DNA of 64,000 bases from Candidatus Bathyarchaeota archaeon (lineage in GTDB: Archaea; Thermoproteota; Bathyarchaeia; TCS64): positions 160,001 to 224,000 of the forward strand of contig CAVYVF010000023.1 in NCBI GenBank assembly GCA_963771885.1, written 5' to 3'. The notes beneath the pieces were generated by a model that had not been told where the DNA came from, searched no databases, and was given only the letters and a program-made list of their open reading frames with translations. Below are positions 1,219 through 21,469 of this stretch, piece by piece. The stretch's first letter is position 1. Every line of letters begins with the position of its first letter. The position numbers and the translations under genes were made by a program.

Positions 1219-2532
1219 TTGAGTTTCAGCGGGGAGAAAGCCTTCGGGTACATGAAAAAGCTCGCAGAAGACATTGGGCCACGGCCCAGCGGCACAGAAA
1301 CGGAGAGGAAAGCCGCGGAGTGGATAATGTCAGAGTTCAAGAGGCTCGGCTACGACTCCAGAATAGAGGAGTTCGACGCCTTCACGGGGATAATTAAGGC
1401 GCAGAAGCTGGAGGTATTAAAACCCTACAAGGCAGAGGTCGCCTGCGAGGTCATGCCCCTTTCGGGAAGCACCGGCGCGAAAGGCGTGACCGGAGAACTG
1501 CTCTACCTCGACACATATGACGAGGAGTACATCACCCCCGAGGTGAAGGGCAAGATCATAATCACCGGCGGAGCCCCCGCCAACAGGGACCGCGCCTTCG
1601 CCCAGCTCAAGAAGTACAAGCCAGCGGGCATCATAATCATCGAGTCCACACCCAAGGCGATGGCGAAGAACCTATGGGGTAGCCCAACCTTCCGCAAGAA
1701 GTATGTCGACATACCCATGGTTAGGGTCGCCTTCGAGGACGGCGTCAACCTCGTAAAGTCGGGCGCCAAGACGATGCGCCTCGTCGCCGTCGCCGAGGAG
1801 AAGACGATTAAGACCCAGAACGTCGTCGCCGAACTCAAGGGGACGACCCGCCGAGAGGAGATCATAGTAGTCTGCGGACACTACGACACAGTATTGGAGG
1901 TCCCCGGCGCTGGCGACAACGCGGGAGGCACAGCCATCACCCTCGAACTCGCACGCGTCTTCAAGAAGAAGGGCACGAAGAGGACGATGCGCTTCATCGC
2001 CTGGGGATGCGAGGAGCTCGGACTGCTCGGCAGCCGGGAGTACGCGAGGAGGCTCAGGACGGAGAGCGAGGCGGAGAAGAAGGCGGACGAGGAAGCCGTC
2101 ACCGAGCTCGACAACACCGTCCTCTGCCTCAACCTCGACGTCCACGGCGGCATGATAGGCACGAACGTCGCCAAAGTACTCGGCCCACCCGAGCTAACGA
2201 CATCCGTGAAGCTGCTCAGCAAGGAGAAGGGCACGGTCTTCATCGTCTCAGAGGGCGTCTACTCATCCGACGGCACGCCTTTCTCCGCAGTCGGGATCCC
2301 CAGTGTCTCACTCAGCAGGGAGACGCCCACAAACCTCCTCATGCACAGCAGAGAAGACGTAGAGAAGTGGCTCAGCCCCGAGGCACTGGAGGCACACGGC
2401 CTTTTCGCCGAGGAGTTCCTCACCCGCTACGCCGCCGAGGCCGCCGCGTGGCCCTTCGAGAAGACGATACCCGAAAAGCAGAAGAAGGAAATCGAGGACT
2501 ACTTCAAGAAAGCGGGGAGAAAGCTCCCCTAG
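1219..2532 (+). CDS. M28 family aminopeptidase with PA domain
   Basis: IGPRPSGT, CGHYDT, GAGDNAGG, WGCEELGLLGS, NLD, SD and H..D Zn-ligand motifs; TTG start. Confidence 0.88.
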   Translation: MSFSGEKAFGYMKKLAEDIGPRPSGTETERKAAEWIMSEFKRLGYDSRIEEFDAFTGIIKAQKLEVLKPYKAEVACEVMPLSGSTGAKGVTGELLYLDTYDEEYITPEVKGKIIITGGAPANRDRAFAQLKKYKPAGIIIIESTPKAMAKNLWGSPTFRKKYVDIPMVRVAFEDGVNLVKSGAKTMRLVAVAEEKTIKTQNVVAELKGTTRREEIIVVCGHYDTVLEVPGAGDNAGGTAITLELARVFKKKGTKRTMRFIAWGCEELGLLGSREYARRLRTESEAEKKADEEAVTELDNTVLCLNLDVHGGMIGTNVAKVLGPPELTTSVKLLSKEKGTVFIVSEGVYSSDGTPFSAVGIPSVSLSRETPTNLLMHSREDVEKWLSPEALEAHGLFAEEFLTRYAAEAAAWPFEKTIPEKQKKEIEDYFKKAGRKLP

Positions 2533-4334
2533 TCTTCTTCCTCGGGGTTCTCCTCAATCCAACTGAACTTCTTCTGCAGCGTCGAAGGGTAGTAGCTACG
2601 CCAGTCGAAGCCGACCCTGCGCCCCCAGTCGAGGTAGATGCGGGGGTCGACGTAGTTCTTCAGGCTTGTGCCGAGGTTATAGTCGCGTGTTATCTCCTGC
2701 GCCTCGACCTGCAGCCTCATGCGCTCGACAGTCTCTCTGTCGCGCTTCCGCTTCTCCTCTAGTTGCTTCTTCAGCTTGAGCGAGGCTGTGACGTAGGCGT
2801 TCTTGAGCTTGCGTACGCGTTCGCGAGCCGCCTTCGTTGCCTTACGGGCGGCGTCGAGCCTCTTCTTCGGCGCCTTGAGCTCGGCTCCGGCCTTCTCTGC
2901 CTCAGCTAGCTTTGTCCTCTGAACCTCTTCTTTCCCCTCAGCCTCGACTAGTCTTTTCTCAGCCTCGACCAGTTTCTCGCGGTACTTGTTCTCCTCGTCA
3001 GTGATCTTAGCGCGGAGTGCCTTCTCATCGGCTGATGCCTTGGCTTCGAGTTGCTTTAAGTGTGCCTTCTTTTTTTCGAGGCTCTGCTGCCAAGTCTTGG
3101 GGATGGTGCGCTTGTGGTTGCAGATTATTGCAGCTTCGAGGTTGGCGCGCAGGGCAGCTTGGCGCTTAACGTAGTCGGGGTCCTCGGGCTTGACGATCTC
3201 TTTGGCGAGTCTGCCGCCGACCGCGTCTGTGGCGTATAAGGTCCTGAAGACCTTGGCGCTGAGCCCCTCCATAATCTCCTTTAGGAAGTCGCCCACGTGG
3301 CCCGAGTTTATGCCCTCGAAGAGGCTATCCTTCCCCGCCCCGCTGGCGAAATCGCGGAGGTTGGCCACCACCTTTGGGGGCAGGGGGGCTGTGATGTTCA
3401 TCGGCACCGAGTCCTTACCGAGGAAGTTGAAGGTGACAGAGCCGTCCCTGTTGAAGCAGACGTGCTCCGGGCGGAGGGTGCTTGCGCCCACCGTATCGGC
3501 CTCGTCCTCGTCGTCCTTCTCGTCTCCGACTCTGAACTTGAGGCGGTCGATGAGGTAGCAGACCGTCGCCGTCTTGCGCCGCTTGAGGTCGGCGGTGGTG
3601 AGGTTGCCCTCTATGTGTGCCTTGACCTCGTCGAGTTTCTCCTTTAGGGCACGTGCCTTCTCGTACTTCTCCATGTCCTTCCTCTGCTTGAGGAAGCTTG
3701 CGTCGCCGGGCCAGACGTACTTCTTTTTGCCACTGAGCTTGTCCGTCCAGCGGGCAATCCACATTGTGCCGGGCTCCCAGACTATCGCCTTCCAGTTGCC
3801 CGGCGGGTGCGGGGCGTCGGGGCTGAGGTTGAGCTCTATGTCCCCGTACTGGGGACCCCTCTTCCACCTGCCCCTCCACGGGTGCTGGCCGCGGCCCATG
3901 AAGATACTGTTTGGCTCCACGTTGTAGTTGCCGAGTTCCATCCGCTGCCCGTCGACCGTGGCGTAGCCGTACTTCTCCTTGTTGGCGTCGCGCTGCGCCT
4001 TCCGCTCAGCTGCCTGCGCCTTCTTCACCTCGGGTGGGAGGTTCTGCTTCTCCTCGCGCTCGCGCTGCACGACCCTGATTATGGCGGTAAAATCTACTTC
4101 GCCAGGTTTCAGTTCGAGGCCGAGTGCCTTGCCGAAGTCCTCGTGGAAGTTCTCAGCGAACTTGGGGTCGTCGACGTAGGGCGTGCCGACCTTCTTCGCC
4201 CAGGCGACTGCTATCTCCTCCTGCTCGTCGCTAAGGCTGACGGGCTGGCCCTTGATGTTGACTGTGAATCCGCGCGCCTTGTACTTGGGGGGGACGATGA
4301 CGCCGTTGTGGTGGAGTGTGTTCACGCTGTGCAC
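2529..4334 (-). CDS. top1B: DNA topoisomerase IB (eukaryote-like)
   Basis: LHHNGV, FMGRGQHP, FRVGDEK, ADTVG, FLGKDS, SAKVFRT, CNHKR, SLKNYVDPR (complete R-K-R-H-Y catalytic pentad); start taken at GTG 4334 (ORF track extends to 4463 into the upstream gene). Confidence 0.93.
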   Translation of the reverse strand: MHSVNTLHHNGVIVPPKYKARGFTVNIKGQPVSLSDEQEEIAVAWAKKVGTPYVDDPKFAENFHEDFGKALGLELKPGEVDFTAIIRVVQREREEKQNLPPEVKKAQAAERKAQRDANKEKYGYATVDGQRMELGNYNVEPNSIFMGRGQHPWRGRWKRGPQYGDIELNLSPDAPHPPGNWKAIVWEPGTMWIARWTDKLSGKKKYVWPGDASFLKQRKDMEKYEKARALKEKLDEVKAHIEGNLTTADLKRRKTATVCYLIDRLKFRVGDEKDDEDEADTVGASTLRPEHVCFNRDGSVTFNFLGKDSVPMNITAPLPPKVVANLRDFASGAGKDSLFEGINSGHVGDFLKEIMEGLSAKVFRTLYATDAVGGRLAKEIVKPEDPDYVKRQAALRANLEAAIICNHKRTIPKTWQQSLEKKKAHLKQLEAKASADEKALRAKITDEENKYREKLVEAEKRLVEAEGKEEVQRTKLAEAEKAGAELKAPKKRLDAARKATKAARERVRKLKNAYVTASLKLKKQLEEKRKRDRETVERMRLQVEAQEITRDYNLGTSLKNYVDPRIYLDWGRRVGFDWRSYYPSTLQKKFSWIEENPEEED

Positions 4335-17049: not shown

Positions 17050-18144
17050 TTAAGAGGATGTCGCCGCCCCGATCTTCTCGGGCAGGTACTTATCCACGAT
17101 GTATGTGAGGCCGTAGCGGCTGAAGGCCTCCAACTCCGCCTTCTTTTGTATCTTTATGAAGAGCTCTATCTCGCTCTTCCACGGATCCTCATTGTAGCGG
17201 GGGTCGGTCTGTAGCTCGGTGAGGCGCTTCTTGTCGAACTCCGTAAGGTTTTCAGTGGGTAGCTTGTAGTTGATGATGTCGCTTGCCCAGACGCCGATCC
17301 ATTTGGCGTCGGGGGTTGTGAGTCCTCTGAGGTGGGCGGCGTTTGCGCTGCCAGAGCAGATGACTTGGGCGATATGTACACCCCAGGGGTCGCCGTCTGT
17401 GAAGAGGAAGACGGGCATCCCCCAGTCCTTACTCAGGCGGTGGATGATGCTTCTCGTGCTTCGGGGCGCCTGCCCGGCGGTGTGTATGAGTATGGCGTTG
17501 AACTTTTTGTGGGCCTGCTCTTCCACGAGACGGGTGAACATTGCGCCTTTCTCGACGACGATGACCTTGTTCGCAGTGGTCTCGATGAACTCGCTGCTGG
17601 TGACGGCGGGGCCGACCATGATGCCGTCGGGGTGGTCAGTTAGGTTCGTGCGCCTCCCCTCGTAGCCGGGAACCGTGTATTCGATTGTGATGTCACCGAA
17701 TATGGCGCTCCTCTCCTCGGGGAAGATGCCGAAGTTCTCACGCGCCTTGTTGAGCGCAACCTCGAGGTCGGTGATGATGCTGTCCGACTCCTGCTGGTCC
17801 GTGTACTCGATATCGCGCTGGCCACGTGCAGAGTAGTATGCCTCCCTGAGTGTACTTGTCTTCCTCTGCGTGACGAGCTCGCGGGCAAACCACGCTGTCC
17901 AGATGAGCTGGGTGAAGGGGCGTATGTGCTTGATGTTTCTGCTGTGACGCTTTACCATGCGGTCGCCGAGGATGTATTGGCGCGTGTGGGGGTCGTACTG
18001 GATGTTGTCTGTGCTCCTGCTCTGCATCATCACCCAGGGGAACTCGCCTTGGTTGATCTGGTCGTAGACTAGCGAGCCGAGCTGCTTTAAGGCCTCGTCG
18101 GTGGCCTCACGCTGCTTGTTCGCCTCACTCATCCGTTTCGACAT
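17050..18144 (-). CDS. top6A: DNA topoisomerase VI subunit A
   Basis: TLREAYY (catalytic Tyr), VEKGAMF, TDGDPWG, KAELEA. Confidence 0.95.
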   Translation of the reverse strand: MSKRMSEANKQREATDEALKQLGSLVYDQINQGEFPWVMMQSRSTDNIQYDPHTRQYILGDRMVKRHSRNIKHIRPFTQLIWTAWFARELVTQRKTSTLREAYYSARGQRDIEYTDQQESDSIITDLEVALNKARENFGIFPEERSAIFGDITIEYTVPGYEGRRTNLTDHPDGIMVGPAVTSSEFIETTANKVIVVEKGAMFTRLVEEQAHKKFNAILIHTAGQAPRSTRSIIHRLSKDWGMPVFLFTDGDPWGVHIAQVICSGSANAAHLRGLTTPDAKWIGVWASDIINYKLPTENLTEFDKKRLTELQTDPRYNEDPWKSEIELFIKIQKKAELEAFSRYGLTYIVDKYLPEKIGAATSS

Positions 18145-19813
18145 CCAGTTTCTCCTCCTTCTCCTCTCCCTCTTCTGCGTCTAGCTCCTCGTCTGGAGGT
18201 GGTAGCACACCGTTCTCCATGTTACCGTTCTCTTCGCCATTCTCTTCTCCATTTTCCTCCTCGTCCTCCTGCTGGTTCACGACGAGTATCTCCTTGAGGA
18301 GCTTCTGCACGTCAGGCATGTCGGTCTTCTCCCCGAGCTTGGCCGCAAACTCGGCTATCTTGGGAAGGTACTTGCCGAATATATTGAGTCGGTGCTTTTG
18401 CCTCTCCAACTTGACGCTACGGCTGATGAATATGCGCAGGTCACGCGCCGCCTCACGTATGGCGTTCGTGATCTCCTTCTCGACCTCGACCTGGTCTGCG
18501 AGGAACTCCTTGCCGACGCTCTTGTAGGGGATCTTGGTCGAGCAGAGGTGGATCGCCACGACGAGGGGCGTCTCCTGCTGCACGTTGTATGTCTTCCAGT
18601 TGATGTCCTTCGAGATGACCTTGTAAGTCACGCAGCTCGACTCGTCGAAGAGGAGGGGGATACGGTTCGCGAACCTGTATAGGGTGATGCCAGTGCCGAT
18701 CTTGCGGACGGTAGGGCCCGCGACGACGGCTGCCTCCACGATGAAGGGATAACCGCTGTAGGTCGCGGGTGGCCGCTGGACGGTCTTGATGAAGTCGGCG
18801 TCTGTGAGGCTGAGCTCCTTCCGTATGCCGGTTTCGAGGAGATCGGGACCGATTGGGCTGAGGCAGCTCGCGTCGGGGCGGTAGAACTCTTGAAACTCCT
18901 TCGCGGCGCGCGTCAGCTTGACAATCTCCTCGGACTGGAGGCTCGCCGGCTTCGTCTCAGGCTTCACTCCTGCGAACTCGAGGAACTTCTCCGCCGTCTT
19001 CGGGCCAACGCCTTGAAACTGCTCGATCATGAAGCCCTTCATCTCGCGTGACTTGGTGACGAGGAGCATCCTGCGGAGAGTCTCGACATCTATACCATGG
19101 GGGTGGGGTTTCACCCTCAGGGGTACGGGGGGCATCTTTGTTGTGCCGCGCTCGAAGCGATAGAGCCTGTTTTTAGGGTCTACGAATGTGAGGTCTGCAT
19201 AGGGATTTACCATGGCAGTCTGACGGAGGTACTCTATCATGCGGCTCATGATACGGGGGTAGTCGCCCTCAATCTGCAGCTCGACGATAGTTCCACGCCA
19301 GCCCCTCTCGTTTGCGAGCGTCGTGTGGCGGAGCACCTGAGGCTGGTTCTTCTGGATGTCCATCATCATCTCATACTCGTGTATCTCGTCCCCAGTGCTA
19401 CTCGTGACGATAACGGGCTTATGGGTAGTTATCTGGCCGTAGAGGATAGTCATCTTGCCGCCCATGCCGAAGGTGCCTCTGTTCTGCTTGAGTGTGTACT
19501 TTGAGCCGTAGAAGACCTGAGCGAAGCAGGCTGGTATCTCATCTGAGGGCACGCCGGTGCCGTTGTCCTGTATGCGGAGGAGGTAGACGGCTGTGCCGTT
19601 CTCGCCTCCGCTGCTGCTCAGCTCCGTGAGGCGCACGTAGATGTCGGGGGGAATCTGGGCGCTCTCGCAGGCGTCGAGGCTGTTCTCGAGTATCTCCCTG
19701 ACGCCAACGTAGATTGCCCTGCTGGGGTTGCTGAAGCCCGCGATCTCCCTGTTGCGGTAGAAGAAGTCACTCGGGCTGACTGCCTGGTACTCCGTCTCCT
19801 GTGATTGTACCGT
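18125..19813 (-). CDS. top6B: DNA topoisomerase VI subunit B (N-terminus extends in frame to an ACG at 19813)
   Basis: Frame continues upstream of the ORF-track start through SPSDFFYRNREIAGFSNP..RE..ENSLDACE (GHKL motif); DNGTG, RGTFGMG, PHPHG, RFANRIPL. Confidence 0.93.
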   Translation of the reverse strand, partial: TVQSQETEYQAVSPSDFFYRNREIAGFSNPSRAIYVGVREILENSLDACESAQIPPDIYVRLTELSSSGGENGTAVYLLRIQDNGTGVPSDEIPACFAQVFYGSKYTLKQNRGTFGMGGKMTILYGQITTHKPVIVTSSTGDEIHEYEMMMDIQKNQPQVLRHTTLANERGWRGTIVELQIEGDYPRIMSRMIEYLRQTAMVNPYADLTFVDPKNRLYRFERGTTKMPPVPLRVKPHPHGIDVETLRRMLLVTKSREMKGFMIEQFQGVGPKTAEKFLEFAGVKPETKPASLQSEEIVKLTRAAKEFQEFYRPDASCLSPIGPDLLETGIRKELSLTDADFIKTVQRPPATYSGYPFIVEAAVVAGPTVRKIGTGITLYRFANRIPLLFDESSCVTYKVISKDINWKTYNVQQETPLVVAIHLCSTKIPYKSVGKEFLADQVEVEKEITNAIREAARDLRIFISRSVKLERQKHRLNIFGKYLPKIAEFAAKLGEKTDMPDVQKLLKEILVVNQQEDEEENGEENGEENGNMENGVLPPPDEELDAEEGEEKEEKLDVETDE

Positions 19814-19814
19814 G

Positions 19815-20405
19815 CTATTCCCTCCTCTCTGATGCTGGGGGTGCCTGGTCGTACCATATCTCGCCGCGATCCTTCTTGAGCTGGCGCCGGTATGCGAAGA
19901 GGTAGTTGTAGACGGTCTTGTGGAACTTACCCCTGATCAGCATCATCACTGCCTCAGTCGCCGCGGGGAGGGACTCCACGTTGCCGATGAGGGCGACTGT
20001 GCTCCCGTAGACGCTCATCTGAGTCTCGGTGAGCTCCTCAATGAGTACCCTGCTCTTGCCTTCCTTGCCTATTATGCGGCCTTTTACTCTGTCCTGCGCG
20101 CTTCGGCTCGGGCCGACGTGCTCCTCGAGGTCGACTATGGAGAGGTCGAAGTCCTCGTTGGCGAGCAGCAAGGCCCTCTCGGGGCTGAAGCCTCTGCCTA
20201 TAGCCTTGACTATGTTTGCGACGATGAAGATTATGGAGACGTCGGGCTGGTCGGGGGTGAGCACTATCTCAACGTTTCCCGACTCGCTCTCTATGACTAG
20301 GTTGACCTTGAAGGTCTTCTCGATACGGCTCTTCACCTTACCTTCTGGACCGATGAGGACGCCGACCCTGTCATGGGGTATCCTGATGTAGTTACGCTTC
20401 TCCAG
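19815..20405 (-). CDS. KH-domain pre-rRNA processing protein (Dim2/Pno1/Krr1 family)
   Basis: In-frame extension (L)EKRNYIRIPHDRVGVLIGPEG (first KH GxxG), AIGRGFSPERA, RVKGRIIGKEGK; candidate start CTG at 20405. Confidence 0.9.
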   Translation of the reverse strand: MEKRNYIRIPHDRVGVLIGPEGKVKSRIEKTFKVNLVIESESGNVEIVLTPDQPDVSIIFIVANIVKAIGRGFSPERALLLANEDFDLSIVDLEEHVGPSRSAQDRVKGRIIGKEGKSRVLIEELTETQMSVYGSTVALIGNVESLPAATEAVMMLIRGKFHKTVYNYLFAYRRQLKKDRGEIWYDQAPPASERRE

Positions 20406-21186
20406 TCTTCACCCACTCCGTTAACTCTTTGTTGTCGTATACCTGGACGCCCAGCCTCGTGAAGTACGCGTTCACCGTCTCCACGTCGTGTTGTAGGAGA
20501 CTGGGGGCTAGGGGATGGTTGATGAGCATGGCTTGGCTCACGTCGAATATGACGGGCTTGTTCTCCCAGACCATAATGTTGTACTCGCTCAGGTCGCCAT
20601 GGACGAGGCCCGCCTTCTGGTAGAGGGTACGCATCTCGTCGGTGAGCATGTCGTAGAATCCGGCCGGGTCCTCGAGTGGCAGTTCTCTGAGGAGTGGTGC
20701 GGGGACTCCGTCGACACCTATGAAGGTCATTACGAGGATGTTCTTGAGGAAGTCAATGGGGCGAGGCGAGTTGACGCCTCCCTGCTGGGCGAGCTGGAGA
20801 TTGCTAAACTCCTTTTGCGTCCACGCGTAGACTAGGCTCTTCGTGTCTGTGCGGATGTGCTTGAATCGGGGGTCGCCTTCTATATACCTCATCATGCCTT
20901 TCCGGAACTCGGCCGTCGTCGTGTAGTAAATCTTGACGGCTATCTCCTTGCCGCCGGGGGCCGTTCCCCAGAAGACGTGTGCCTCTTTCCCCGCCTTGAG
21001 TACGCCCTTGATCTTGTCTATCTTCTTCTTCTGGATGAGCCTGAGGATGCCTTCCAGTGTAGGGCGGTCGAAGACTGCATCGTTGACATTGAACTCCTCC
21101 TGGTTCTTGTTCAGCATCAGAGCTGACTCTTCATGTCTCCTCTGCAGCTTCTCGGCCTTGCGTTCCATCTTCTCTTGGCTGGGCAC
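20392..21186 (-). CDS. rio1: RIO1 family Ser/Thr kinase
   Basis: GKEAHV, AVKIY, YIEGDPRF, W..KEF.NL, LVHGDLSEYNI, IFDVSQA. Confidence 0.93.
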   Translation of the reverse strand: MPSQEKMERKAEKLQRRHEESALMLNKNQEEFNVNDAVFDRPTLEGILRLIQKKKIDKIKGVLKAGKEAHVFWGTAPGGKEIAVKIYYTTTAEFRKGMMRYIEGDPRFKHIRTDTKSLVYAWTQKEFSNLQLAQQGGVNSPRPIDFLKNILVMTFIGVDGVPAPLLRELPLEDPAGFYDMLTDEMRTLYQKAGLVHGDLSEYNIMVWENKPVIFDVSQAMLINHPLAPSLLQHDVETVNAYFTRLGVQVYDNKELTEWVKTGEA

Positions 21187-21197
21187 GTGGGAATCAG

Positions 21198-21233
21198 CTA
21201 CTCTATCTTCAGTATGCCTCTCTGCTTGCCCAA
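21198..21233 (-). pseudogene. Mini-ORF MGKQRGILKIE*, possible internally deleted aIF-1A remnant
   Basis: TTG...TAG with GAGGG SD-like sequence upstream and a TATA-like ATTTTTAAG at 21272-21280; occupies the aIF-1A slot of the aIF1A-rio1-KH-top6BA operon. Confidence 0.5.
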
Positions 21234-21271
21234 GGGCGGACCCTCTCTCTCGGTGATAGCTGGGTGAGAGG

Positions 21272-21311
21272 CTTAAAAATCGTTCCTATAGGCGTTTAAG
21301 CCATAAACGCC
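21272..21311 (-). promoter_or_regulatory. TATA-like box plus adjacent 8-bp inverted repeat upstream of the rio1-top6 operon
   Basis: Minus-strand ATTTTTAAG (21272-21280); GGCGTTTA-N5-TAAACGCC at 21291-21311. Confidence 0.45.
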
Positions 21312-21469
21312 GTTTTTTAACTAGCACGCTTCAATTTTCCTTTATTTTCTGATCCAGTTTTATATTAAACGTGTTAATTCGTATTTAAGGGTAAATCTTG
21401 ACCCTCACGCGTCTGTTAACAAATCCGGCCAGTATTCAGGGAAAGTCGCGTCTTTGGTGTTTCGCTGCT

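Follow-up and report, generated by a model that had tools for sequence, protein, structure and literature searches.

Once duplication has made a prokaryotic gene redundant, the spare copy becomes a pseudogene and is eroded by substitutions, frameshifts and nested deletions; this process itself is well known. For the core translation factor aIF-1A, two genes have been studied in Haloferax volcanii, where they can be deleted singly and not together, as the accessible portions of two reports describe (PMC3828320; PMC8576121). A literature search, mostly without subscription papers, found no report of an aIF-1A gene duplicated or lost in Bathyarchaeia.

The locus described here lies in a window of 64,000 nt, the whole stretch of DNA that was analyzed, from a Bathyarchaeia genome (G000; other G labels denote genomes of relatives, L labels loci and X labels sequencing runs). 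An 11-codon open reading frame stands ahead of rio1 in an operon that continues with a KH-domain protein gene, top6B and top6A (Table 1). It is very probably a pseudogene remnant left after aIF-1A duplication, through ordinary loss of a spare copy. The gene order had been proposed in a sequence-only reading of this DNA and is supported by NCBIfam models: the KH, top6B and top6A-type models pass their curated cut-offs, and the Rio1 models give a strong match (E 1e-65), yet below their own curated cut-off. A long acidic low-complexity tail ends top6B (18125-18300, minus strand). In relatives, sfsA sits between an FBPase/IMPase gene and aIF-1A (PF03749 match in G009). SfsA was not found anywhere in the source genome (92% complete) and sfsA, too, is cut to its 3' tail; therefore, deletion down to a gene's end is ordinary here.

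Table 1. Features of the aIF-1A remnant and the rio1 operon in the window
Feature	Position	Strand	Remarks
top6A	17050..18144	-	
top6B	18125..19813	-	ACG start at 19813 by homology
arCOG04150 KH-domain protein gene	19815..20405	-	CTG start at 20405 by homology
rio1 kinase gene	20392..21186	-	GTG start, 264 aa
SD-like AGCTGAT of rio1	21193..21199	-	6/7 to anti-SD complement; overlaps remnant stop codon; putative function
aIF-1A remnant	21198..21233	-	codons 1-4 (TTG start) fused to last 7 codons + TAG
Deletion junction AAGCAGA	21221..21227	-	K-Q at codons 3-4 (this lineage) and K94-Q95; L199 alignment
Shine-Dalgarno-like GAGGG of former aIF-1A gene	21241..21245	-	anti-SD of the genome's 16S rRNA located
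TATA-like box TTTTTAAG	21272..21279	-	operon promoter, still present in remnant alleles
sfsA 3' tail (gene deleted)	21392..21419	-	upstream of aIF-1A in relatives

Read on the minus strand of the window, the remnant begins with TTG at 21233-21231, runs for 11 codons and ends with TAG at 21200-21198, leaving a spacer of 11 nt to the rio1 GTG at 21186. The TATA-like box, GAGGG, reading frame and spacing had thus been described accurately. Compared with the 102-codon gene of relatives, 91 codons (273 nt) are missing. The OB-fold model PF01176 (~64 residues) finds no match in the mini-ORF, its sole match in the whole genome being an intact one at C23:679773-679958. Over its final 30 nt, the remnant agrees with the end of the aIF-1A gene linked to rio1 at 28 of 30 positions in G002 and G016, at 26 of 30 in G008, G012, G013 and the genome's own second copy, and at 22 of 30 in G009, an agreement that exceeds what chance would be expected to give. 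The promoter and the spacer before rio1 also align to their counterparts in relatives with an intact gene; in genus g1 the intact slot holds a 102-codon aIF-1A that ends 10-17 nt ahead of rio1.

The 5' end is explained by a metagenome locus, L199, whose Rio1 is 94% identical. Its promoter is that of the remnant, and its gene likewise opens with TTG-GGC-AAG-CAG, after which ~39 aIF-1A-like codons precede a deletion of its own. Because L199 shares the TTG and continues from it into aIF-1A-like codons, this is the true original start position, and the start codon would have changed from ATG to TTG before the last deletion. A global alignment had suggested that the TTG belongs to an internal S-P-W codon fragment; the L199 start rules this out. 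The proposal that the OB fold was lost through an in-frame internal deletion, with the two ends remaining, is borne out by both comparisons, as is the similarity it predicted to the aIF-1A termini of relatives. The remnant has what is expected of a decayed gene: i) both of its ends are homologous to the syntenic intact gene (3' end, G002/G016; 5' end, L199); and ii) it lies between the promoter and rio1, where 50 of 65 family genomes retain aIF-1A.

At the junction, the short sequence AAGCAGA is found at both gene ends, and microhomology-guided repair there may have produced the deletion, with the L199 alignment permitting a junction a few bases away. An alternating CG tract is absent from 21221-21227. 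The retained 3' end likely reflects the SD-like site of rio1, which overlaps the stop codon.

The same reading had held an assembly or read deletion to be equally plausible, leaving the gene intact in the organism. The source genome is a 23-contig assembly with 6.66% contamination, and the bridging evidence consists of assembled contigs. Nevertheless, an artefact is effectively refuted, since the same junction recurs in independent material. G003 (Rio1 99% identical) has the identical 11-codon ORF, and the metagenome locus L203 encodes MGKQRGILKLE, one change from the source 11-mer. Of four runs compared, three are DNA runs (X1, X2 and X3), each of a different study and with its own variants, whose contigs span the junction. 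In X1, one contig covers the entire kilobase; it differs by 7 substitutions and lacks another 4 nt at 21218, which frameshifts the 11-mer; in X2, a change at 21218 turns the Gly of the 11-mer into Ser. Two other contigs were set aside: one of the RNA run X15 (20700-21251), which extends <31 nt beyond the junction, and one of X2 with a joint at 21198-21298, which has just 22 nt on one side and probably comes from another organism. The X15 contig ends ~20 nt below the TATA box and was considered as marking a transcription start, but contigs cannot show starts.

Contrary to what had been proposed, the cell has not lost aIF-1A, because an intact gene of 102 aa is on the same contig (G000:C23:679716-680024), ~500 kb from the remnant; an intact copy elsewhere had been named beforehand as a refuting result. 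This second copy adjoins, and lies upstream of, a YchF-related GTPase gene. It scores above the Pfam (PF01176) and TIGR00523 cut-offs, shares 86-90% identity with the copies in the operons of five relatives, and at 54 columns invariant across 36 family references shows a single change, R94K, which is also common among operon copies. Its conserved residues are present, it has a TATA-like box and an SD-like site, and it is presumed to be expressed and to supply the cell's aIF-1A. For two 110-aa genes upstream of it (L001:1850-2182 and 2237-2569, minus strand), NCBIfam gives no match; in 10 g1 genomes the nearer of the two is found close by the second copy, on one side or the other.

Loss of the operon copy is recurrent. 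Among 71 genomes of one Bathyarchaeia family, Rio1 is matched in 65 and PF01176 in 69, and the DNA upstream of rio1 was examined in all 65 Rio1-bearing genomes. The operon aIF-1A is kept in 50 (49 whole ORFs plus the G080 copy, which is broken across the ends of two contigs), and a remnant only is present in 15, five in g1, four in g16 and six in g19. All 15 of the latter have another aIF-1A copy, full length in 14 and a 42-aa contig-end piece in G057. Conversely, in 13 of the 50 keepers no other copy was found, these genomes being incomplete. No genome among the 65 is without both copies. On the Rio1 tree (73 of 75 rows, omitting the broken G025 and the short G074), loss of the operon copy needs six changes, five of which are forced by strong branches; this and the aIF-1A tree are quick trees without bootstrap.

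In the aIF-1A tree (126 rows, in which the frameshifted second-copy row of G002 is meaningless), a divergent paralogue of other genera (48 rows, support 99) stands apart from the operon type. The g1 second copy nests within the g1 operon-type sequences (support 82-89), suggesting that it arose later, in a duplication of its own. The copies that survive in g16 and g19 are divergent ones, with 56-57% identity to the operon type in two pairs that were measured, and this is the only kind found in g16/g19 genomes without an operon copy (L153, L155, L160-L164, L168, L171-L173, L140, L149). The idea that the g1 second copy occupies the locus of the divergent paralogue found no support, with one neighbor family shared with one genome. 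Some genomes (G062, G066, G077, G081) have 3-4 aIF-1A copies.

Intermediate stages are preserved in strains. A pattern scan of metagenome contigs gave 15 loci, of which five have an intact ORF, one is full length but frameshifted, and nine are deleted. The distance from the TATA box to rio1 is ~365 nt in intact alleles, 207 nt in L199 and L204, 128-133 nt in six loci (like G017), and 91 nt in L203 (like G000); the alleles fit a nested deletion series. The native frame is lost in seven of the nine deleted metagenome alleles and kept in two; because most are out of frame, the in-frame state of the source remnant looks like chance. Among the five g1 remnant genomes, the frame is kept in three (G000, G003, G011) and not in two. 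Still-open operon copies of G004, G008, G015 and G077 are changed at invariant residues, e.g., G32V, C40R and R46G. Operon copies that are near full length and apparently decaying, through invariant-residue changes or a frameshift, were seen at L115 (G077), L016 (G004), L010 (G008), L201 and L205. Pairwise dN/dS is mostly saturated and gives weak support for relaxed selection, in a few pairs only. The G011 junction has a repeat of 5-7 nt, and several other junctions show no clear repeat.

These observations suggest the following sequence. An ancestor of the genus would have duplicated aIF-1A to a stand-alone locus, here beside the YchF-related GTPase gene, making the copy that headed the rio1-KH-top6B-top6A operon redundant. 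The operon copy would then have accumulated substitutions and been shortened by one internal deletion after another, probably between short repeats. These deletions would have been halted on one side by the promoter and leader and on the other by the rio1 ribosome-binding site, presumably spared because the downstream genes need them, so that only the two ends survive. The 11-aa peptide would have no sequence-specific role, the second copy supplying aIF-1A. Both the order of events and the reason for the kept ends are what we infer from the alleles at hand.

Might the peptide itself be functional, for example, as a basic competitor of aIF-1A tails? The same peptide occurs in G000 and G003 and, with one change, in L203, and other in-frame alleles exist in G011 and L204. 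The agreement among G000, G003 and L203 reflects shared descent because their Rio1 proteins are 98-99% identical. The 11-mer is frameshifted in X1 and has lost its Gly in X2, and the ORFs of the remnants, 9 to 51 aa long, are unrelated in sequence. Most deletion alleles of close strains have lost the frame, and in one strain the 11-mer itself is frameshifted, so that the peptide is not conserved; the test for constraint on frame or peptide found none, and a functional micropeptide is highly improbable.

A second alternative is a leader ORF whose sequence does not matter: its SD and start codon would load ribosomes, and termination-reinitiation would feed rio1 or the mRNA would be protected. 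Some features of the remnants are in its favor. In 12 of the 16 remnants tested, the corresponding position still has an ATG or TTG, and the codons behind the retained start are 56-100% identical to an intact relative, a retention not obviously predicted by pure neutral decay. The rough per-allele chances of start retention are 0.26-0.60 for nine of the ten most decayed remnants. In this test the alleles are not independent, sharing ancestry, the reference sequences do not represent actual ancestors, and some positional slack was allowed in locating starts; retention of the start codon and leader is thus a hint only. The stop lies 7-13 nt from the rio1 start in G000, G011, L204 and L193-type alleles, and in the accessible part of an H. 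volcanii study (PMC10666635) gaps of 13-14 nt still allow 40-60% reinitiation. However, gaps of 22-23 nt abolished coupling there, and the gap is 22 nt in L199, 32 nt in G017, L198 and L200, 99 nt in G007, and 163 nt in L201. Instead of the conserved stop within ~20 nt of the downstream start that marks a uORF, the stops are 7 to 163 nt before rio1. Furthermore, the g19 remnants G052, G053, G057 and G065 stop after two codons, four g16 remnants have neither ATG nor TTG at the spot, and rio1 has its own SD-like site. A leader ORF is therefore improbable, and the remnant of a spare copy is the preferred interpretation.

It had also been speculated that loss of aIF-1A relaxes start selection and thereby permits the nearby ACG and CTG starts. 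In agreement with such a link, four genomes without the operon copy (G000, G003, G017 and G007) start the KH gene with CTG, and two of them, G000 and G003, start top6B with ACG. Besides the retention of aIF-1A in the cell, the distribution of these codons already contradicts it, so that the link is almost certainly wrong. CTG also starts the KH gene in G001 and G010, and ACG top6B in G012, all with both aIF-1A copies intact; top6B starts with ATG in G017 and G011, both without the operon copy; and the KH gene starts with GTG in all 10 g16 and g19 genomes without it. Moreover, aIF1/SUI1 is present in 17 of 18 genus genomes, and no odd feature was seen in it there that would make an altered aIF1 the cause of the odd starts. 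The KH CTG and top6B ACG starts are patchy within g1 and absent from other genera where the start was read.

A rough genome-wide count compared SD-led codons near the starts of 1828 long ORFs with a control. An SD-led excess was seen for ATG (172 vs 96), TTG (107 vs 15) and GTG (82 vs 54); no excess was found in this count for CTG (46 vs 56) or ACG (58 vs 62). TTG is thus a common start in the source genome. Among 15 readable stand-alone g1 copies (L001:1444-1752, minus strand, and L061-L074), 14 start with TTG and one with GTG; the divergent paralogue starts with TTG or GTG in 30 of 48 cases, and the operon copies with ATG in 48 of 49. Start-codon feedback control is known for eIF1 and bacterial IF3. 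The TTG/GTG starts of stand-alone copies could reflect such feedback or simple inheritance where TTG is common. A broader proposal is that selection in this family favors taking aIF-1A out of the rio1 operon as a separate gene, whose weak TTG/GTG start could allow feedback control, and that the vacated slot is kept as a leader ORF of no particular sequence that loads ribosomes onto the rio1 mRNA; the start codons of the stand-alone copies and the start retention in most remnants are the pattern in its favor. This is considered quite unlikely; ordinary loss of a spare copy remains preferred.

The mechanistic weight of these results is small, a spare copy having been lost, and their value as a natural experiment is modest. 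Within one archaeal family, the copy of this core translation factor in the rio1 operon has disappeared on 5-6 occasions. The divergent paralogue, the only kind found in eight genomes plus a partial ninth and a tenth (g16, g19), appears to be sufficient. Caution is needed in marker-gene work and annotation, as these genomes retain an aIF-1A other than the syntenic orthologue.

As regards known systems, usual prokaryotic duplicate erosion is matched by the substitutions, frameshifts and nested deletions at the rio1-linked aIF-1A. Here, in contrast, the operon promoter on one side and the SD of the following gene on the other would set limits to the erosion, so that both ends remain, and it has recurred 5-6 times at the same locus. 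Archaeal microhomology-mediated end joining, as far as the accessible parts of two reports describe it (PMC12281630, PMC5435918), gives junctions at short repeats, as those at AAGCAGA and the G011 repeat may be; several aIF-1A remnant junctions differ in having no clear repeat. Termination-reinitiation coupling, in what is accessible of its descriptions (PMC10666635; PMC6728339), resembles the source locus, where a short ORF terminates 11 nt ahead of the following start codon, but the distance from the stop to rio1 is not conserved across alleles. The closest parallel, within the portions of the H. volcanii reports cited above, is the HVO_0136/HVO_A0637 pair, two aIF-1A genes of which either is dispensable while the other is present. 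Unlike in H. volcanii, natural populations of this Bathyarchaeia family have repeatedly deleted the operon copy, and the second copy is either a near-identical recent duplicate, as in g1, or an older divergent paralogue, as in the other genera.
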